NCBI RefSeq assembly: GCF_000027125.1
Contig: NC_017626.1
Direction: 5' to 3' (one strand)
DNA from: Escherichia coli 042
GTDB lineage: Bacteria > Pseudomonadota > Gammaproteobacteria > Enterobacterales > Enterobacteriaceae
Length of the DNA: 64,000 nt
Shown here: positions 12,620 through 63,909 of the stretch, one piece after another
How positions within the stretch are numbered: position 1 is the stretch's first letter
How the letters are laid out: each line of letters begins with the position of its first letter
The notes under the pieces: model-generated
What the model saw: only the letters and a program-made list of their open reading frames with translations
The model's database searches: none
What the model was told of the DNA's origin: nothing
Made by a program: the position numbers and the translations under genes

Positions 12620-13186
12620 ATGCTTGAACTTAATGCTAAAACCACCGCGCTGGTGGTGATTGATTTACAAGAAGGCATCTTACCTTTTGCCGGTGGTCCA
12701 CATACTGCCGATGAGGTGGTTAATCGCGCCGGGAAGCTGGCGGCGAAATTTCGCGCGAGCGGTCAGCCCGTGTTTCTGGTGCGCGTTGGCTGGTCTGCCG
12801 ATTACGCCGAAGCATTAAAACAGCCGGTTGATGTCCCCTCCCCCGCTAAAGTGTTACCCGAAAACTGGTGGCAACATCCTGCTGCATTAGGTGCAACCGA
12901 CAGCGATATCGAAATCATCAAACGTCAATGGGGTGCGTTTTACGGTACGGATCTGGAGTTGCAATTACGCCGCCGGGGTATCGATACAATAGTATTATGT
13001 GGGATCTCGACCAATATCGGTGTTGAATCCACCGCCCGCAATGCCTGGGAACTCGGTTTTAATCTGGTGATTGCCGAAGACGCCTGCAGCGCCGCCAGCG
13101 CCGAGCAGCACAATAACAGCATCAACCATATCTACCCACGCATCGCCCGTGTGCGCAGTGTGGAAGAGATCCTCAACGCATTATGA
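12620..13186 (+). CDS. yecD: isochorismatase-family hydrolase YecD
   Basis: 188-aa product from [19 protein letters not shown] with AGGAG RBS at 12609-12613; the ORF-track start at 12587 is an extension. Confidence 0.88.
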
Positions 13187-14053: not shown

Positions 14054-16201
<2,148 letters not shown>

Positions 16202-16206
16202 AGATT

Positions 16207-16231
16207 AGCGCCCGTTTCCGGGCGCTTTTCA
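16207..16231. terminator. rho-independent terminator between cmoB and convergent torZ
   Basis: agcgcccg-tttc-cgggcgct hairpin followed by TTTT. Confidence 0.7.
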
Positions 16232-16235
16232 CGTC

Positions 16236-20095: not shown

Positions 20096-20129
20096 TAAAA
20101 AAAGGCCCCTGTTGAAATTGCAGGGGCCT
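20096..20129 (-). terminator. rho-independent terminator downstream of cutC
   Basis: ggcccctg...caggggcc hairpin flanked by an A run (plus strand). Confidence 0.7.
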
Positions 20130-20175
20130 GGTACGAGCAAGCATCATATTGGGCGACATGATGCAACGGTAAAAA

Positions 20176-20931
<756 letters not shown>

Positions 20932-23451: not shown

Positions 23452-23466
23452 TCGCGTTATACGGCA

Positions 23467-23500
23467 AAAGCCGATGTCATGGCAGACATCGGCTTTTTTA
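23467..23500. terminator. rho-independent terminator between convergent argS and flhE
   Basis: aaaagccgatgtc-atggca-gacatcggctttttt hairpin. Confidence 0.8.
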
Positions 23501-23503
23501 TCA

Positions 23504-23896
23504 TTAACGATAATTCACAATCACTTCATTCCGTTGTACCTTTAGCGGCGGAATTAACCGCCCACCGCCAGACACTTCCCAGATAAATCGCAACGGTTCT
23601 ATCGCCGGTATACCGGAAAAGGCCACGGTGGTTCCACTCTGCCCTTCTAATTCGACACAACGAGATTGTGAACACAAGCGAACCCGCAGTCCTGCAGGTG
23701 TCGGGCCGATAAGCTGATAACGCCACGCCACCAGCGTCATCATTCCTGCAGCAGGTTGTCGAGTAGAAAGAGGCGCTGACGACATCGACTCACCACGGTG
23801 ATTCAGCGTAACGCCCACACTACTCGCCTGCCACATCCCCTCCCCGGCGGCTTGCACCAGCAGCGGAAACAATAATATTGCTAATAAGGTTCTCAT
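23504..23896 (-). CDS. flhE: flagellar protein FlhE
   Basis: 130 aa, MRTLLAILLFPLLVQAAGEG; 1-nt overlap with the flhA stop. Confidence 0.92.
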   Translation of the reverse strand: MRTLLAILLFPLLVQAAGEGMWQASSVGVTLNHRGESMSSAPLSTRQPAAGMMTLVAWRYQLIGPTPAGLRVRLCSQSRCVELEGQSGTTVAFSGIPAIEPLRFIWEVSGGGRLIPPLKVQRNEVIVNYR

Positions 23897-25974
23897 CATT
23901 TACCGCCAATTGTCGCCGTCATGCGGATATGTCGGTTATCAGATAGTTCCAGATTCGACAGCACCACTAACTGCGGCAAGCTGCGGCGCAGGAAGCGAGA
24001 CAATAATGGTCGCAGCGCGTGGTTCACCAATAAAACTGGCGGCGCACCCAACATCTCCTGACGGGATAGCGCTTCCTGAGTTTGCGCCAGCAAACGATCC
24101 GCCAGCCCTGGCTCCAGTCCGCCCCCACCCTGCAACGCCTGTAGTAACAAACGTTCCAGCGGCGTATCAAGGCCAATAACATGGACTTCATCTTTGCCAG
24201 GAAACCACTGCTGGGTAATCGCCCGTCCCAACGCCACGCGCACGACGGCGGTTAATTCATGTGGATCGCTTTGGATGGGCGCATGTTCCGCCAGCGTTTC
24301 GAGAATGGTGCGCATATCGCGAATCGGTACTTTTTCATCGAGGAGATTTTGCAGCACTTTATGCAGTGTGGTGAGCGTGACGACGCCAGGAACGAGATCT
24401 TCCGTCAGCTTTGGCATCTCCTGGGCGACGCGATCCAACAGCTGTTGCGCCTCCTGACGACCAAACAGCTCTGCGGCATGCTGGCTAATGAGGTGGTTAA
24501 GATGCGTTGCCACCACCGTGCTGGCCTCAACCACGGTGTACCCCTGAATCTGCGCCTGTTCTTTAAGCGCACTTTCAATCCAGATAGCATTCAGGCCAAA
24601 TGCCGGATCGACGGTCGCCTCACCAGGTAACGTCCCGGCAGCGGTACCAGGGTTAATCGCCAACCAACGCCCCGGATAAGCATCACCACTGCCTATCTCC
24701 ACGCCTTTCATCAAAATGCGATAGCGGGCAGGTTGCAGATCCATATTGTCGCGAATGTGCACCACCGGCGGCAGAAACCCCATCTCCTGGGCAAATTTCT
24801 TGCGAATACTGCGTATACGGCCCAGCAACTCACCATCCTGCTGGAAATCGACCATCGGGATCAGGCGATAACCCACTTCCATTCCCAGAGAATCTTCAAG
24901 TTGTACATCGTTCCACGTCGCTTCGACAACGGCATTATTCTCTGCCATTTTTACCGGTTTTGGTTCGGCAGGCGCTTTTTGTTCGCGTCCGCGGATCCAC
25001 CAGGCCAGCCCAAGCAATCCGGCAGTGAACAGCAAAAATACCAGGTTCGGCATTCCAGGCACCAGGCCGAGTAAACCGAGCACGGCGGCGCTTAACAACA
25101 TAACGCTCGGGTTACTGAAAAGCTGATTCACCATCTGCTCGCCAACATCCTGATCGGTGCTGACACGCGTAACGATGACCCCGGCGGCGGTAGAAATCAC
25201 CAGCGCCGGGATTTGTGCCACCAGACCGTCGCCAATGGTCAATAGCGTATAACTTTCCGCGGCGTGTCCCATGCTCATGCCATGTTGCAGCACGCCGACC
25301 AGCAACCCGCCGACAACGTTAATGACCATGATGAGGATCCCGGCGATGGCATCGCCGCGAACAAATTTACTTGCCCCGTCCATTGAGCCGTAAAAATCGG
25401 CTTCCTGAGTCACTTCGGAGCGGCGTTTTTTCGCCTCATCTTCACCAATCAATCCGGCGTTAAGGTCGGCATCAATCGCCATCTGCTTACCCGGCATACC
25501 ATCGAGAACAAAGCGCGCGCCCACTTCCGCAATACGCCCGGCACCTTTGGTGATAACCATAAAGTTGATGATCACGAGAATGACGAACACCACGATACCG
25601 ATAGCGAAATTGCCACCAACGAGGAAGTGACCGAACGCTTCGACCACCTTTCCAGCCGCCGCCGCGCCGGTATGCCCTTCCATCAAAATGATACGGGTTG
25701 AAGCCACGTTAAGTGCCAGACGCAACAGCGTGGTAAACAACAGGATGGTCGGAAACGCAGCAAACTCAAGCGTGCGCTGGGTAAACATCGCCACCAGCAA
25801 CACCATGATCGACAAGGCAATATTGAAGGTAAACAACAGGTCGAGTATGAATGCGGGCAGTGGCAGCACCATCATCGACAAGATCAACAGGATCAAAATC
25901 GGTCCGGCAAGGATCTGCCATTGTGTCGATTTCAGGTTTGCGGGCAGGCGCAGCATCGCGGCCAGATTACTCAT
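23896..25974 (-). CDS. flhA: flagellar type III export apparatus protein FlhA
   Basis: 692 aa from MSNLAAMLRLPANLKSTQWQ; the ORF track over-extends by 25 codons. Confidence 0.95.
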   Translation of the reverse strand: MSNLAAMLRLPANLKSTQWQILAGPILILLILSMMVLPLPAFILDLLFTFNIALSIMVLLVAMFTQRTLEFAAFPTILLFTTLLRLALNVASTRIILMEGHTGAAAAGKVVEAFGHFLVGGNFAIGIVVFVILVIINFMVITKGAGRIAEVGARFVLDGMPGKQMAIDADLNAGLIGEDEAKKRRSEVTQEADFYGSMDGASKFVRGDAIAGILIMVINVVGGLLVGVLQHGMSMGHAAESYTLLTIGDGLVAQIPALVISTAAGVIVTRVSTDQDVGEQMVNQLFSNPSVMLLSAAVLGLLGLVPGMPNLVFLLFTAGLLGLAWWIRGREQKAPAEPKPVKMAENNAVVEATWNDVQLEDSLGMEVGYRLIPMVDFQQDGELLGRIRSIRKKFAQEMGFLPPVVHIRDNMDLQPARYRILMKGVEIGSGDAYPGRWLAINPGTAAGTLPGEATVDPAFGLNAIWIESALKEQAQIQGYTVVEASTVVATHLNHLISQHAAELFGRQEAQQLLDRVAQEMPKLTEDLVPGVVTLTTLHKVLQNLLDEKVPIRDMRTILETLAEHAPIQSDPHELTAVVRVALGRAITQQWFPGKDEVHVIGLDTPLERLLLQALQGGGGLEPGLADRLLAQTQEALSRQEMLGAPPVLLVNHALRPLLSRFLRRSLPQLVVLSNLELSDNRHIRMTATIGGK

Positions 25975-27115
25975 GGGTCGGTTTCTCGTTAATAAAATCC
26001 AGGGCTTCCGGCACCGGAAGATGAGTAGGTTGTACAGGGCGCTGTCCACCGGCCAGACGCCAGCGTTTCAGTTGCCAGACCCAGGCCAGCACTTCCGCCA
26101 CCGCGGCGTACAGTTGACCCGGGATTTGTTGACCGATCTCCGCATGTCGATACAGCGCACGCGCCAGCGGCGGCGCTTCAAGCGTAGGGACGTTATTTTC
26201 AGCGCCAATTTCACGAATGCGCAGCGCGACCAGCCCTGCACCTTTAGCGACCACTTTCGGTGCGCTCATTTTGTTTTCGTCATACTGCAACGCTACCGAA
26301 TAGTGGGTCGGGTTATTGACAATGACATCCGCTTTCGGCACATCGGCCATCATCCGACGCCGCGCGGCAGCTCGCTGCATCTGACGGATCCGCCCTTTAA
26401 CATGGGGGTCGCCTTCGCTTTGTTTGAACTCATCACGAATATCCTGCCGCGACATACGCAGCTTTTTCAGGTGGCTGAAAATTTGGAAAAAGACGTCAAA
26501 TCCCACCATTGGAATGACACCAAGCACCACCAGCAGTGCGCATAGCCCTACCAGATCCATCGCATTACCCATGGCGGTAATCGGAGACTCGGCCATTAAG
26601 CGCATCATCTGCGGCCAGTGATGCCAGAGAAAAAACCCCGTCACGCTGCCAACCAGGATGGTTTTCAAAATTGCTTTAAGTAACTCCGCGCCAGTCTGTG
26701 CCGAGAACATCCGTTTAATCCCCGGTAGCGGGTTGAGTTTGGAAAACTTCGGCTGCAAGGATTTGCCGCTAAATACCAGCCCCCCCAACATGACCGGAGA
26801 AATGAGCGCCACCAGCACCACGCCGCTAATCAGCGGCAGCAGCGCCAGCATGGCTTCTCTGATCAGCAGAATAATTTGCCCGAGGATCAGATTCGGGTCA
26901 TTGATAATACTGTGATCAAAATGCAGCCCAGCGGAGAGCATGCCCGACAATCGACGGGCCAGCGACACACCGCCAAACCAGATAACACTAACGCCCACCA
27001 GCAAAATCAGCAGTGAAGTCAGTTCACGGGAACGCGGGATTTGCCCCTCTTCCCGCGCTTTTTCTAGTCGGTGAGGTGTGGGGGCTTCTGTTTTGTCGTC
27101 GCTCTCGTCAGACAC
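25967..27115 (-). CDS. flhB: flagellar export apparatus switch protein FlhB
   Basis: 382 aa; contains the NPTH autocleavage motif; 8-nt overlap with flhA. Confidence 0.95.
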   Translation of the reverse strand: MSDESDDKTEAPTPHRLEKAREEGQIPRSRELTSLLILLVGVSVIWFGGVSLARRLSGMLSAGLHFDHSIINDPNLILGQIILLIREAMLALLPLISGVVLVALISPVMLGGLVFSGKSLQPKFSKLNPLPGIKRMFSAQTGAELLKAILKTILVGSVTGFFLWHHWPQMMRLMAESPITAMGNAMDLVGLCALLVVLGVIPMVGFDVFFQIFSHLKKLRMSRQDIRDEFKQSEGDPHVKGRIRQMQRAAARRRMMADVPKADVIVNNPTHYSVALQYDENKMSAPKVVAKGAGLVALRIREIGAENNVPTLEAPPLARALYRHAEIGQQIPGQLYAAVAEVLAWVWQLKRWRLAGGQRPVQPTHLPVPEALDFINEKPTHE

Positions 27116-33646: not shown

Positions 33647-33673
33647 TTATCGGCAAGGAGGGGGGAAACTTTA
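33647..33673 (-). promoter_or_regulatory. sigma-28 (FliA) class 3 promoter of the tar-tap-cheRBYZ operon
   Basis: On the minus strand reads TAAAGTTT-N11-GCCGATAA, a perfect match to the sigma-28 consensus, about 30 bp upstream of the tar start. Confidence 0.85.
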
Positions 33674-33759
33674 TTGCTGATGCCACCCGCCGCGAAACTG
33701 AAATAAAAAACCCGATGCGCAGGTCATCGGGTTCATTGCAATTGAGGAAATCAGGAGAA

Positions 33760-37175: not shown

Positions 37176-37179
<4 letters not shown>

Positions 37180-39120: not shown

Positions 39121-39900
39121 TATTCCCACCCAGAATAACCAACTTTATTTTTATGCGGTCTCACCGCACCCCGTGATGTCGCCGGGAAGCCCCGGTAAAA
39201 AATAATTAGCATTAGAATAGTTGCGATAAGCTGCAACAGGCAGAGCCCCTTTTTTGGATTTAATAAGTCCTCACAAATAGAAGGGGCTCTTTACACTTAT
39301 CTAAGATTTTTCCTAAATCGACGCAACTGTACTCGTCACTACACGCACATACAACGGAGGGGGGCTGCGATTTTCAATAATGTGTGATGCAGATCACACA
39401 AAACACTCAATTACTTAACATAAATGTATAAGTCATACTTTTGTTTTGGGTGTATTTCAATCTGTTAAAAAGTTTTTCGCAACGCTAGCAAGCAAAAATG
39501 AAACAGGAATAATCGAAATGGGATGTTGCGCACAGTTAAAATAACTCACCGTAAATAATCATCTGCTATAAATAATCACTTTCATGCAATACCAGATAAG
39601 CTATTTTTAAACAGACACTTACCGCACAACAAACTAATTAAATACAAAGAAAGGCAACAATCAACTTAATGTTAATAAAATGTTTTACATATATTAACCA
39701 CTTGTTTAATATGGAGAATCAGTACATTATTTTCTTATAATTACAGTTGAAATCATATGATCACCGAGAGTGATTGATTAATTGTCTTTACTAATAATCA
39801 GACTAATATTTACCTGTTTGACTGAGTTGGGATTGCGTCGTTTCTCCATTAGGAGTAAAGCTTTAATGTCACCTGAAGTTCACAGAATAAGGAACAGGTT
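39121..39900. promoter_or_regulatory. flhDC class 1 control region (divergent from uspC); no IS element present
   Basis: About 780 bp, AT-rich intergenic region with no transposase ORF and no inverted repeats. Confidence 0.7.
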
Positions 39901-40329
39901 ATGAGCTATAGCAATATTCTTGTCGCCGTTGCGGTTACACCGGAAAGTCAGCAACTGCTGGCAAAAGCGGTATCTATCGCCAGGCCAGTAAAGGGACACA
40001 TCAGTTTAATTACTCTCGCGTCCGACCCGGAAATGTACAATCAATTAGCTGCGCCGATGCTTGAAGATTTACGCAGCGTGATGCAGGAAGAAACGCAAAG
40101 CTTTCTTGATAAGTTAATTCAGGATGCGGGGTATCCCGTTGACAAGACGTTTATTGCCTACGGTGAGTTAAGCGAACATATTCTGGAAGTTTGTCGCAAA
40201 TATCATTTCGATTTGGTGATTTGCGGTAATCACAATCACAGTTTCTTTTCGCGAGCATCCTGCTCGGCGAAAAGAGTGATTGCCTCAAGTGAGGTCGATG
40301 TGCTGTTAGTTCCACTTACGGGAGATTAA
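39901..40329 (+). CDS. uspC: universal stress protein C
   Basis: 142 aa, MSYSNILVAVAVTPESQQLLAKAVSIARP. Confidence 0.93.
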   Translation: MSYSNILVAVAVTPESQQLLAKAVSIARPVKGHISLITLASDPEMYNQLAAPMLEDLRSVMQEETQSFLDKLIQDAGYPVDKTFIAYGELSEHILEVCRKYHFDLVICGNHNHSFFSRASCSAKRVIASSEVDVLLVPLTGD

Positions 40330-40335
40330 CCGCAC

Positions 40336-43688
<3,353 letters not shown>

Positions 43689-51951: not shown

Positions 51952-52038
51952 TGGTACCCGGAGCGGGACTTGAACCCGCACAGCGCGAACGCCGAGGGAT
52001 TTTAAATCCCTTGTGTCTACCGATTCCACCATCCGGGC
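51952..52038 (-). tRNA. leuZ: tRNA-Leu (anticodon UAA)
   Basis: 87-nt type II tRNA; the minus strand reads GCCCGGATGGTGGAATCGGTAGACACAAGGGATTTAAAATCCC...GGGTACCA with encoded CCA. Confidence 0.95.
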
Positions 52039-52050
52039 TCGGGAAGAAAG

Positions 52051-52124
52051 TGGAGGCGCGTTCCGGAGTCGAACCGGACTAGACGGATTTGCAATCCGCT
52101 ACATAACCGCTTTGTTAACGCGCC
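52051..52124 (-). tRNA. cysT: tRNA-Cys (anticodon GCA)
   Basis: 74 nt; the minus strand reads GGCGCGTTAACAAAGCGGTTATGTAGCGGATTGCAAATCCGTCTAGTCCGGTTCGACTCCGGAACGCGCCTCCA. Confidence 0.95.
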
Positions 52125-52178
52125 AAATTCTTCAGGCCTTTCAGCCAGACATCCGCTTGACGCCGATGTCTTTTAAAC

Positions 52179-52254
<76 letters not shown>

Positions 52255-53010: not shown

Positions 53011-54843
53011 TCAATGTTTCAACGACCAGAAGATCTTTTCTGCCAGACCTTGCGAAATACCCGGCACTTTTGCAATTTCCTCAACGCTGGCGTTACGTAA
53101 ACCTTGCAAACCGCCCATATATTTCAACAACATTTGCCGACGTTTTGGCCCGACGCCTTCAATGGTTTCCAGGGAACTGGTATTTTTGACCTTCGCCCGT
53201 TTCTTACGGTGCCCGCCAATCGCGTGATCGTGTGATTCATCGCGAATATGCTGGATAACATGCAGCGCGGGAGAATCTGGCGGCAAACTAAATCCCTCAC
53301 CTTCCGGCTCAAAGAACAGCGTTTCCAGCCCAGCCTTACGATCTGCTCCTTTGGCAACGCCAAGAAGCAGCGGATGATTTTTATCCCATGAGACATCCAG
53401 TTCGGCGAAGACATTTTTCGCCTGCGCAAGCTGGCCTTTGCCGCCGTCAATAAGGATCACATCCGGGATCTTACTGTCGTCGATGGCTTTACCATAACGC
53501 CGACGCAGCACCTGATTCATCGCCGCATAATCATCGCCCGGCGTGATGCCAGTAATGTTATAGCGCCGATACTCCGCACGCAGCGGGCCGTTAGCATCAA
53601 ACACCACACAGGAAGCGACGGTTTGTTCACCCATGGTATGGCTGATGTCAAAGCACTCCATCCGCTTCACTTCCGGCAATTTCAACACGCTGGCAAGCGC
53701 GGTCAGTCGCTGGTGAACGGTAGATTGCTGCGAAAGTTTGCTGGTTAAGGCCGTCGCCGCATTGGTGCGCGCGAGTTTCAGATAACGCGCCCGATCGCCG
53801 CGAGGTTTGGTTTGAACATTAATCTTGCGTCCCGCCAGTTCTGAAAGGGAATCGGCGAGCAGCGTTTTATCGCTAAGATTAAAATCGAGCAGGATCTCAC
53901 CCGGTAAGGTGCGCATCTGGCTGCCTTGTAAATAGAACTGACCTACGAAGGTTTCTACCACCTCGCTCAGTTCCGTACCGCCAGGCACTTTCGGGAAATA
54001 GCTGCGGCTGCCGAGCACTTTGCCCTGACGAATGAACAATACATGGACACAAGCCATTCCCGCATCGAACGCCACACCAATAACGTCGAGGTCGTCGCCG
54101 GTATTGGACACAAACTGTTTTTCGGTGACGCGTCGCACCGCCTGAATTTGGTCGCGAATACGTGCCGCTTCTTCAAACTCCAGATTCTGGCTGGCAGTTT
54201 CCATACGGCTAATGAGTTGCGTAAGCACCTGATCATCTTTGCCAGACAAAAACAGGCGCACATACTCGACCTGCTGAGCGTATTCTTCTTCACTCACCAG
54301 TCCTTCAACGCACGGTCCCAGACAGCGCCCTATCTGATATTGCAGACACGGACGCGAGCGATTGCGATAAACACTATTTTCGCACTGGCGAATGGGGAAT
54401 ATCTTTTGCAGTAGCGCCAGTGTTTCACGTACGGCATAGCCATTCGGGAACGGGCCGAAATATTCACCTTTAGCATGCTTCGCACCACGATGCATCGCCA
54501 GACGCGGATGGGTATCGCCACTCAGGAAGATAAAGGGATAAGATTTATCATCGCGTAGCAAAACGTTGTAACGCGGCTGATAGAGTTTGATGTAGTTGTG
54601 TTCCAGCAACAGCGCTTCGGTTTCTGTATGAGTAACCGTTACATCAATTTGCTGGATCTGGGCGACCAGCGCTTCGGTTTTGCGCGAAGCGAGGTTGCTA
54701 CGGAAATAGCTGGAAAGCCGTTTTTTCAGGTCTTTCGCTTTGCCGACATAGATAACCGTACCACCAGCATCGTACATGCGATAAACGCCTGGCTGGCTGG
54801 TTACGGTTTTTAAAAACGCTTTTGCGTCAAACTGATCACTCAC
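53011..54843 (-). CDS. uvrC: excinuclease ABC subunit C
   Basis: 610 aa; GIY-YIG N-terminal motif ([18 protein letters not shown]). Confidence 0.96.
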
Positions 54844-55954: not shown

Positions 55955-56179
55955 ATGAGTACGCCTGATTTTTCTACTGCCGAGAATAATCAAGAACTGG
56001 CAAATGAAGTCTCCTGCCTGAAAGCGATGCTGACGCTGATGCTGCAGGCGATGGGACAAGCTGACGCGGGCCGCGTGATGTTAAAGATGGAAAAACAGCT
56101 TGCGCTGATCGAAGACGAAACCCAGGCTGCAGTATTTTCCAAAACGGTTAAGCAAATTAAACAAGCCTACCGTCAGTAA
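55955..56179 (+). CDS. yecF: DUF2594 small protein YecF
   Basis: 74 aa, [26 protein letters not shown]. Confidence 0.85.
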
Positions 56180-57197: not shown

Positions 57198-57950
57198 TTA
57201 TTGCAGCAGAAACTTCTCGAGGAACTGGCGGGTGCGAGGCTGCTGAGGATCGGCAAATAACGCTTTTGCGGCCCCCTGCTCGACTATCCGCCCCTGGTCC
57301 ATAAAGATCGCCCGGTCCGCAACATCCCGGGCAAAGCTCATTTCGTGCGTCACAATCACCATTGTGCGCTTTTCCTGCGCCAGCTGACGGATGGTGTTCA
57401 GGACTTCGCCCACCAGCTCTGGATCCAGCGCCGACGTTGGCTCGTCAAACAAAATCACCTCAGGACGCATAGCCAGCGCTCGCGCAATCGCGACACGCTG
57501 CTGTTGACCGCCAGACAAACGACGTGGATAGCTGGTTTCTTTACCTTCCAGCCCAACTTTCGCCAGCAGCTCGCGAGCGCGCGCCGTGGCCTCTTCTTTC
57601 GGTTCGCCTTTGACGATCACCGGCCCTTCAATAATGTTTTCCAGCACCGTACGATGCGGAAACAAATTAAAGTTCTGGAAGACAAACCCGACGTGCTGAC
57701 GCAACTGGCGAATCAGCGATTTTTGCTGACTTAATGAACGTGCAGTATCAATGGTGATATCGCCAACGGTGATGGTTCCCGCTTCCGGTTGTTCCAGCAG
57801 ATTTATGCTGCGTAGCAACGTGGTTTTGCCGGAACCACTTGGACCGATAATTGCCACTACTTCGCCAGGCTTCACCTCAAGGTCGATACCGTGCAGCACC
57901 GTCTGACCATGGAATTTTTTCACCAGGTTCTTAACTTCAATGGCACTCAT
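57198..57950 (-). CDS. tcyN: L-cystine ABC transporter ATP-binding protein (YecC)
   Basis: 250 aa; Walker A GPSGSGKTT. Confidence 0.93.
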   Translation of the reverse strand: MSAIEVKNLVKKFHGQTVLHGIDLEVKPGEVVAIIGPSGSGKTTLLRSINLLEQPEAGTITVGDITIDTARSLSQQKSLIRQLRQHVGFVFQNFNLFPHRTVLENIIEGPVIVKGEPKEEATARARELLAKVGLEGKETSYPRRLSGGQQQRVAIARALAMRPEVILFDEPTSALDPELVGEVLNTIRQLAQEKRTMVIVTHEMSFARDVADRAIFMDQGRIVEQGAAKALFADPQQPRTRQFLEKFLLQ

Positions 57951-62244: not shown

Positions 62245-63909
62245 TTAACCCTGCAGCAGAGACAGAACCTGCTGCGGTACCTGGTTGGCTTTTGCCAGCA
62301 CGGAGTTACCGGCCTGCTGAATGATCTGCGCTTTCGACATGTTGGACACTTCGGTCGCATAGTCGGCGTCCTGAATACGGGACTGCGCTTCAGACAGGTT
62401 GGTAGTGGTGTTGTTCAGGTTGGTGACTGCGGAATCCAGACGGTTCTGGATAGCACCCAGGGAAGAACGGAATTTGTCGATAGACGCGATAGCGTCATCC
62501 AATGCTGCCAGCGGGTTGGTAGTAGCTTCAGATTCACTAGTTGTATTAGTCGTTAAGTTACCATTGGCACTTACATAGATAGCTTTACTGGTAGCCGCAT
62601 TTTCACCACTAGTAATAGTGCCATCAGCTTGAGCAAAATACTCGGCAGGAGTTTTGCTCACTTTTCCATCGACTAAATACGCTGATGCAGCAGTGCCATT
62701 ATTGACTGTATATGTCGCAGGTAAAGTTACACCAACAGTTGCAGTGTAAGTCTCATTTTTAACGGCGTTAGCAAACGTTGAAGCATCAACAGAAATATCT
62801 ACCCCATCAAACTTTGTCGTATTAGCAGTAAATGTACCTTTATCTGTTGTAATGACTGTTTTGGCATTAGCATTGTTTGCCATTAAGTCAGACAGTTTAG
62901 CTTGAGTATCAGTGCCTGCGTTAGTTTTACTTAAGTTACCAGTATCATCAAGATAGAGAGCGGCACCGTCATCAGCAGCAGTTAAAGAACCATCTTTAGC
63001 AATAATGACTTTTTGCTCTTGAGCTGTTGTACCGTTGCCAATACTTACTGTTGCAGCAGTGGTACCACCCGCTTCAGGATTCAGGAATGCCGCCAGTTGA
63101 GTCGCATCAACTGAAGCAGAAGCCGTATATGTGTTAGTATCTTTATGATAAGTATATTCCACTGGCGTACCAGGGGCAGCTGCACCAAAACCAACATCTG
63201 CCTCCGTGGAAACTTTACTGCCATCAACACCAGCTACCGCATTCAAAATATCCGTGCTACTTGCGACGGCTTTGTCAGCAATATATCTATTAACTCCAGC
63301 TGTAGTGACCCCCGTATTATCGAGTTTTAAACCAACCATATCTTTAAGTGTTGCAGCAGTATTGGCTGTTTCACCTTCGCCATTCACGTTAAAACCAGCC
63401 AGATTCAGCGTATCAGAGTCAATTTTCTTCAGATCAATCGTGATGGTTTCACCATCATTTGCGCCGACCTGAATTTTCATTGAACCATCTTTGGACAGCA
63501 CGTTCACGCCGTTGAACTGGGTCTGACCGGATACGCGGTCAATTTCGTCCAGACGAGATTTGATTTCGTCCTGGATGGAGTCCAGGTCAGAATCGGAGTT
63601 AGTCCCTGTAGTGGCCTGAACCGTCAGTTCACGAATACGCTGTAAGTTGTTGTTGATTTCGGACAGCGCGCCTTCAGTGGTCTGTGCAACAGAAATACCG
63701 TCATTGGCGTTACGTGCAGCCTGAGTCAGGCCTTTAATATTAGAAGTAAAACGGTTAGCAATCGCCTGACCTGCGGCGTCATCCTTCGCGCTGTTAATAC
63801 GCAAGCCAGAAGACAGACGCTCGATAGAACTCGACAGCGCAGACTGGTTCTTGTTGATATTATTTTGAGTGATCAGCGAGAGGCTGTTGGTATTAATGAC
63901 TTGTGCCAT
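62245..63909 (-). CDS. fliC: flagellin FliC (554 aa; non-K-12 H-antigen central domain)
   Basis: The conserved N-terminus ([54 protein letters not shown]) and C-terminus ([67 protein letters not shown]) flank a Thr/Ala/Asn-rich variable middle region. Confidence 0.95.

Follow-up and report, generated by a model that had tools for sequence, protein, structure and literature searches.

Where the start codon of a gene overlaps the stop codon of its upstream neighbour, are the two genes translated in a coupled manner, or does the second gene recruit ribosomes of its own? The question is raised by the flagellar genes flhB, flhA and flhE and by other same-strand neighbours in the 64,000-nt stretch of E. 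coli DNA analysed here (the window). In the original prediction, start/stop overlaps in this region were called extensive and taken to indicate translational coupling. The overlaps are ordinary, already annotated and well-described junctions between successive genes in E. coli operons, namely flhBAE, motAB-cheAW, otsBA, znuCB, yecDE, cmoAB, uvrYC and dcyD-tcyLN. Very likely, the best explanation is that of annotated operon overlaps with termination-reinitiation at spacings of -4, -1 and -8 nt, otsA being translated independently. The significance of the overlap result is small.

Overlaps and start codons in the light of curated annotation

The window corresponds to the pykA'-fliC part of the E. 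coli chromosome and is 97.4-98% identical to K-12 MG1655 (2-2.6% nucleotide divergence), whose loci b1857-b1923, with flhBAE as b1880-b1878, have the same gene content and order. However, the window lacks yecT/yecV and the IS1 element upstream of flhD, and its fliC allele differs from that of K-12. When the curated NC_000913.3 CDS coordinates were carried over base by base, start position and length were equal in every projected gene, with an amino-acid identity of at least 97%. Start codons were also identical except that of yebB (ATG in the window, GTG in K-12), and all ten overlap lengths are those of K-12. PGAP annotation of near-identical strains agrees with the curated K-12 annotation on every start.

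On the minus strand, flhB (25967..27115; 382 aa, GTG start, TAA stop; b1880, 100% amino-acid identity, PGAP concurring) and flhA (23896..25974; 692 aa, ATG start, TGA stop; b1879, 99.7% amino-acid identity) share 8 nt (25967..25974). Direct reading of this junction gives ATGAGTAA, which contains the flhA ATG and the flhB TAA. The third gene, flhE (23504..23896, minus strand; 130 aa), begins at the second of two tandem ATGs, with a signal peptide at residues 1-16. Mapping from K-12 places 4-nt ATGA overlaps at znuC/znuB (5197..5200), yecD/yecE (13183..13186) and cmoA/cmoB (15230..15233) on the plus strand, and at motA/motB (37176..37179) and tcyL/tcyN (57947..57950) on the minus strand. A 4-nt GTGA overlap is found at uvrY/uvrC (54840..54843, minus strand), where the uvrC start is GTG. 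Longer overlaps are those of otsB/otsA (26 nt, 41735..41760, minus strand) and yecU/yecF (14 nt, 55955..55968, plus strand).

The nine overlaps predicted at the outset are thus all present with curated start codons, both in the K-12 projection and on direct reading of the junctions, and comparison with the curated K-12 proteins keeps every one of them. Since curated K-12 and PGAP concur on each start, the view that the overlaps support the chosen start codons and the operon structure was upheld; the gene calls are sound and the operon boundaries match those of the textbooks. Some details needed amendment. The tcyN/tcyL overlap exists, but in the reverse gene order, tcyL being upstream; yecU/yecF had been overlooked; and the interval assigned to the whole set spans flhA and flhB only, though pairs elsewhere were listed.

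It might be argued that the overlaps are artefacts of start choice, the true starts lying downstream of the upstream stop codons. In-frame candidates of this kind can be found for uvrC (ATG, +66 nt), flhA (ATG, +18 nt) and tcyN (GTG, +27 nt), and candidate starts stand in tandem at flhE and at otsA. Such an artefact is nevertheless extremely improbable, given that two independent annotations share the same starts. In addition, for seven of the ten pairs no other in-frame start occurs upstream, and use of the nearest one downstream would cost 9-45 conserved residues. Counted from the annotated ATG, 79 species share the N-terminal MxNL of FlhA, and the window FlhA aligns over residues 1-692 with the full-length solved chain (PDB chain 36hw, 692 aa). 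In nearly all species compared, FlhE starts at the junction, M[RK] leading into a hydrophobic signal peptide. The uvrC start is said to have been placed historically at an ATG lying 66 nt farther downstream and to have been moved later to the GTG in the overlap, which fits the in-frame ATG found at +66.

Spacing classes and translational coupling

The class considered here comprises same-strand neighbours in which the downstream start overlaps, or is nested against, the upstream stop (NTGA, TRATG, NTGNNTRR). That its starts are real is indicated by the concordance of curated K-12 and PGAP annotations, by the retention of the flhA and flhE starts in 74-79 species and by PDB chains. Eight of the ten overlaps have a spacing of -4 (six), -1 (one) or -8 (one), the three enriched spacings that support reinitiation (PMC12548453; PMC10666635); otsBA (-26) and yecUF (-14) fall outside. 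The -4 spacing is clearly non-random in the window, where 24 co-directional pairs lie within ±30 nt and 6 of them have it (binomial P = 2e-6; P = 1.2e-4 after correction for 61 possible spacings). On the other hand, 'extensive' is too strong a word for a genome-typical density. An unusual overlap density in the window was rejected, as 11 of 46 co-directional pairs (23.9%) are spaced by -8 to +6 nt, versus 707 of 2987 (23.7%) in the whole K-12 genome (PMC10666635; binomial P about 0.5).

At -4 (NTGA), -1 (TGATG) and -8 (ATGNNTAA), the terminating ribosome would be released over the next start and would re-initiate there, helped by a Shine-Dalgarno-like stretch within the upstream gene. The outputs of both proteins would thereby be linked. 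The closest precedents are trpB/trpA and the pairs studied by Huber et al. (2019; PMC6728339), hyfHI, astDB, ydbH/ynbE as well as menDH. The window shares with them the ATGA/GTGA/TGATG junction motifs and a Shine-Dalgarno-like sequence within the upstream gene, although none of its own pairs is among those tested there. In the same study, coupling was observed in four of the five -4 pairs native to E. coli, bioBF being the exception, and the contribution of the Shine-Dalgarno motif differed from pair to pair. The motAB pair, the sole such case among the pairs listed in the window, is cited there as experimentally coupled. Unlike these -4 and -1 systems, flhB/flhA belongs to the rarer -8 class, reportedly less efficient (PMC10666635). 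Operon proteomics (PMC6544118) yielded nothing relevant on overlaps. With these spacings, coupled translation may reasonably be inferred at -4, -1 and -8, and the original prediction is supported to that extent, whereas for otsB/otsA coupling is doubtful.

Shine-Dalgarno duplex energies reach -5.7 kcal/mol or stronger at eight of the ten overlapped starts; those of yecE (-3.3) and flhA (-3.0 kcal/mol) are weak. It may be remarked that so low a complementarity at the flhA start counts against reinitiation. Mean complementarity is -5.7 kcal/mol at overlapped starts versus -6.2 kcal/mol in non-overlapping pairs. The equal strength at overlapped and separated starts favors another view, in which genome compaction and easy mutation to NTGA or TRATG produce the overlaps as by-products, the downstream genes initiating alone at internal Shine-Dalgarno sequences. 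The genome-average density of overlaps is also in line with this idea, as are de novo initiation in bioBF despite its -4 overlap and the optimally spaced AGGAG of otsA. It is, however, difficult to reconcile with the coupling of the other four tested -4 pairs and with the 4.5-fold enrichment of short-distance pairs for subunits of heteromeric complexes (PMC10666635), since MotAB, ZnuBC, TcyLN and FlhAB are such complexes. On balance, compaction with independent initiation is unlikely, without being negligible, as the general explanation.

For otsA, by contrast with the -4 and -1 systems, the -26 spacing lies beyond the range where coupling was seen. As the work covered by the review PMC12548453 gave no coupling at -25 nt, and as otsA has its own AGGAG 8 nt upstream of its ATG, this gene probably initiates on its own. 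It would recruit ribosomes independently by means of this well-spaced motif. No literature specific to the uvrY/uvrC or otsBA overlaps was found.

Coupling could also arise through mRNA unfolding. In such a model, the ribosome that translates the upstream gene would melt a structure hiding the downstream start, upon which fresh ribosomes would load. For the pairs of chemotaxis genes in the same region, this was put forward by Lovdok et al. (2009; PMC2716512), who measured coupling between adjacent genes of the mocha and meche operons. Coupling strengths of 0.2-0.6 were obtained and in part ascribed to mRNA unfolding. Unfolding is also considered the likelier mechanism at long overlaps (PMC12548453), hence a possible one for otsBA. 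In 70-nt windows around the ten overlapped starts, however, folding is no better than in shuffled controls (z from -1.0 to +0.7, for local pairings), so that a local unfolding mechanism is unsupported, and we regard it as improbable. The chemotaxis pairs convey a further lesson. In the window their members do not overlap (cheR/B, +2; cheB/Y, +14; cheY/Z, +10; cheA/W, +20), and yet they are experimentally coupled (PMC2716512). Overlap is thus not required for coupling, nor is it specific evidence of it.

The flhBAE junctions across Enterobacterales

The co-directional order flhB-flhA-flhE, following the chemotaxis operon, is seen in 74 of 80 loci, in agreement with the conserved order described in PMC11247099; Photorhabdus is without flhE. 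Inside flhBAE, no promoter-like sites were found and terminator-like matches are at chance level only. The operon is closed by a strong 13-bp hairpin between an A-run and a T-run (23466..23497), resembling a bidirectional terminator that ends both argS (plus strand) and flhBAE (minus strand).

The junctions themselves are conserved. Of 79 Enterobacterales species, 74 have flhB and flhA spaced by -8 and five by -1. For flhA and flhE, a spacing of -1 or -4 occurs in 62 of 74 species; among the remaining 12, it is at most +12 nt in 11 and ambiguous in one (-11 or +4). Furthermore, the third base of FlhA codon 2, a four-fold degenerate site that is also the T of the flhB TAA, is T in 66 of 68 sequences, whereas at the other four-fold sites of the first 45 FlhA codons the commonest base represents 40-88%. 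This cross-species evidence points to purifying selection on the flhB/flhA (-8) and flhA/flhE (-1/-4) junctions, a mildly useful by-product of the analysis. A compaction by-product would hardly explain why flhB/flhA never reaches a positive spacer in 79 species, nor why the synonymous site is fixed.

Stoichiometry has to be considered as well. InvA and SpaS, the homologues of FlhA and FlhB, occur in a 9:1 ratio (PMC5542437), and 18 FlhA chains are found across two PDB entries. As some nine FlhA are required for each FlhB in the export gate, strict 1:1 reinitiation alone cannot set this ratio; the same need argues for additional independent initiation at flhA. It may be imagined that the junction AUG-GCU-AAU, where the flhB UAA falls within FlhA codons 2-3, is a tuned, inefficient reinitiation site helping to set the FlhB:FlhA ratio rather than a passive overlap. 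This suggestion, drawn from the maintenance, throughout Enterobacterales, of the junction and of a synonymous site in it that would otherwise be free to vary, is a speculative and rather doubtful one. If true, the site would contribute to FlhB and FlhA production for the 1:9 export gate. In any case, junction conservation makes flhBAE a concrete and cheap target for reinitiation tests in the flagellar export operon.

The flhE start and the flhA stop allele

The flhA/flhE junction reads ATGATG on the minus strand (23894..23899; aaATGATGaga in context), with the flhA TGA at 23898-23896 and the flhE ATG at 23896-23894, hence a 1-nt overlap (TGATG, position 23896). That the flhE start is the second of two Met codons, as had been proposed, is correct. 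An extra in-frame ATG (23899-23897) precedes it, as read at the junction, and stems from a common TAA to TGA allele of the flhA stop, the window having AAATGATGAGA where K-12 has AAATAATGAGA. Among 5426 complete E. coli genomes, at least 1070 carry the 57-nt junction allele of the window, and at least 2783 carry the TAATG allele of K-12. On an identical junction, PGAP chooses the second ATG. The first (23899) is disfavoured as a real start; it is ATA in K-12 and irrelevant to the mature protein. Since the signal peptide is cleaved, the extra ATG is without effect on mature FlhE, and the construct in PDB entry 4qxl begins at FlhE residue 17, with AGEG.

Overlapping gene pairs and their start codons

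Curated coding-sequence starts and ends of E. coli K-12 MG1655 (NC_000913.3) were projected onto the window by base-by-base alignment. Both sequences are colinear from pykA' to fliC, with 97.4-98.0% identity, and uvrC to fliC match the right-hand 18 kb of the window. The mapped genes share start positions and at least 97% amino-acid identity with K-12, and all have intact reading frames of K-12 length, with the sole exception of fliC, which is a different allele. Only the start codon of yebB (window position 8039) differs, being ATG here and GTG in K-12. Coordinates given by PGAP, the NCBI annotation pipeline, for two near-identical strains agree with the projected ones. Moreover, a 5-kb query around the finding (argS-flhE-flhA-flhB-cheZ) is matched in 5425 of 5426 complete E. 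coli genomes (best 99.3% identity).

The nine overlaps of the original prediction are all reproduced by the projected coding sequences, in agreement with the PGAP coordinates and with direct reading of junctions. Adjacent co-directional genes overlap by 4 nt at znuC/znuB, yecD/yecE, cmoA/cmoB, motA/motB, uvrY/uvrC (GTGA) and tcyL/tcyN, the last having been listed in reverse order, since tcyL is the upstream gene. As read directly, flhA (...GGT AAA TGA) runs onto the flhE ATG with a 1-nt overlap at 23896, flhB and flhA share the 8 nt ATGAGTAA (25974-25967), the flhB end (CAT GAG TAA) and the flhA start (ATG AGT AAT) being in overlapping frames, and the otsA ATG lies 26 nt ahead of the otsB TAA. 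A tenth overlap, of 14 nt between yecU and yecF (55955-55968), was absent from the list; yecU encodes a 58-aa small protein, and this overlap falls outside the common -4, -1 and -8 classes.

The overlaps had also been taken to support the chosen starts and the operon structure. Alignment to curated K-12 bears this out, with loci, starts and overlaps all the same. For znuB, yecE, cmoB, motB, uvrC, yecF and tcyN, there is no alternative in-frame start upstream, and the next one downstream would cost 9-45 residues. Alternative in-frame flhA starts (GTG at -75, ATG at +18) are disfavoured because the 692-aa FlhA PDB chain aligns over 1-692 and because 79 species keep the N-terminus MxNL... beginning at the annotated ATG. 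Concerning otsA, extra candidates occur (GTG at -9, ATG at -6), but of the three the curated ATG alone is suitably spaced (8 nt) from AGGAG.

Among the 46 adjacent co-directional pairs of the window, 24 lie within ±30 nt, and six of these are spaced at exactly -4 (binomial P = 2e-6; 1.2e-4 once corrected for the 61 possible spacings). The overlap pattern is therefore real. It is also the well-known genome-wide one: in K-12, the range from -8 to +6 nt holds 707 of 2987 unidirectional pairs (23.7%; PMC10666635), and the commonest overlaps are, by rank, -4, -1 and -8 (PMC10666635; PMC12548453). With 11 of 46 pairs in that range (23.9%), the window is indistinguishable from the genome average and the qualification of its overlaps as extensive is unwarranted. 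Its junctions belong to classes that are standard in bacterial operons; the overlaps were already known and nothing is new here.

The flhBAE junctions across Enterobacterales

One FlhA scan of species-representative genomes gave 80 Enterobacterales loci (80-99% amino-acid identity). The flhB/flhA distance is -8 in 74 species, -1 in five and positive in none, and 67 species share ATGGCTAA as the -8 motif. The T opening the flhB TAA doubles as the third base of FlhA codon 2, a four-fold-degenerate site. T occupies this site in 66 of 68 sequences, whereas the commonest base reaches 40-88% at the other four-fold sites of the first 45 flhA codons, so that the junction is under purifying selection. 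Across the whole set (L005-L084), codons 2, 3 and 4 of FlhA (GCT AAT CTG; window 25963-25971) are 93-97% conserved at their third bases, so that the flhB stop stays TAA followed by T. UAAU is the most efficient termination signal in E. coli. This strict -8 conservation is the only modestly interesting residue of the analysis; it might, with low probability, represent a tuned reinitiation site. In Escherichia albertii NBRC 107761 (L006), flhB is probably a pseudogene, since its reading frame is broken by a TGA at codon 55, some 976 nt ahead of the start of flhA (3001); despite this stop, the junction ATGAGTAA is intact.

The flhA/flhE distance is -1 at 43 loci and -4 at 19, ten of the latter being NTGATG tandem starts, as in the window; it is +1, +3 or +12 in 11, and one further case is ambiguous. 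In Photorhabdus spp., an flhE homologue was looked for downstream of flhA at six loci (L075-L080) and found at none; there, the flhA stop is TAG or TAA, with AT-rich sequence after it.

In the window, the flhA/flhE junction reads AAATGATGAGA, versus AAATAATGAGA in K-12. The flhA stop is TGA instead of TAA, a single change that creates an extra in-frame ATG at 23899. The second of the two ATGs, already proposed as the flhE start, is indeed the conserved and curated one, and PGAP picks it on an identical junction. Both alleles are common in E. coli, the exact 57-nt junction of the window occurring in at least 1070 complete genomes and that of K-12 in at least 2783. FlhE, a product of the flhBAE operon, is a Sec-exported periplasmic protein (PMC11247099). 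Because the solved Salmonella FlhE construct begins at residue 17 (AGEG), past the signal peptide, mature FlhE is unaffected by which ATG serves as start.

Bearing on translational coupling

According to the literature, a ribosome terminating at a -4, -1 or -8 junction would re-initiate on the adjoining start, often aided by a Shine-Dalgarno-like stretch within the upstream gene. Of five native E. coli -4 pairs, four were reported to show such reinitiation, and coupling is also cited for motAB (PMC6728339). However, bioBF has a -4 overlap yet is uncoupled (PMC6728339), so that this overlap alone can occur without coupling; -8 is reportedly less efficient than -4 or -1 (PMC10666635). Conversely, the experimentally coupled cheR/B, cheB/Y, cheY/Z and cheA/W pairs (PMC2716512) have no overlap in this window. 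We can only infer the coupling that the original prediction read from these overlaps.

Mean Shine-Dalgarno-like complementarity is -5.7 kcal/mol at overlapped starts versus -6.2 at separated pairs, and is weak at flhA (-3.0) and yecE (-3.3). The 70 nt surrounding each overlapped start show no unusual local RNA folding (z-scores -1.0 to +0.7), which lends no support to a local unfolding mechanism. The export gate requires about nine FlhA per FlhB, and strict 1:1 reinitiation would therefore be insufficient. As for otsBA, coupling was not seen at a -25 spacing (PMC12548453) and otsA has its own strong site; initiation is thus probably independent at this -26 pair, where coupling appears doubtful.

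Promoter-like sites were sought in the flhBAE interior and none was found; terminator-like hits were at chance level. A 13-bp hairpin (23466-23497), flanked by an A-run and a T-run, ends the operon against convergent argS. This terminator-like, bidirectional hairpin makes up nearly all of the argS-flhE spacer (23452-23503), of 52 nt versus 784 nt in MG1655.

Other features of the window

Two convergent pairs nearly abut, yebB/ruvC 1 nt apart (8641-8643) and uspC/otsA 6 nt apart (40329-40336), leaving no space for separate terminators. The cmoB-torZ spacer (16202-16235) has 34 nt, about 130 nt less than the 164 nt of K-12. MG1655 carries IS1H upstream of flhD, whereas the window has no IS1 there (39121-39900); the flhD-uspC spacer is 780 nt in the window versus 1555 nt in MG1655. 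Both yecT and yecV, present in MG1655, are missing at the argS-flhE spacer (23452-23503). The fliC product (62245-63909) has 554 aa versus 498 aa in K-12 and aligns at its ends only (about 91% identity), so that the strain has a different flagellin (H-antigen) allele. RNA genes include MicL (20097-20404, minus strand), three tRNAs (51955-52254, minus strand) and, in the tar-cheW spacer, a match to the C0465 sRNA (Rfam, 100 bits; 33663-33740, plus strand) that is oriented against the chemotaxis operon.
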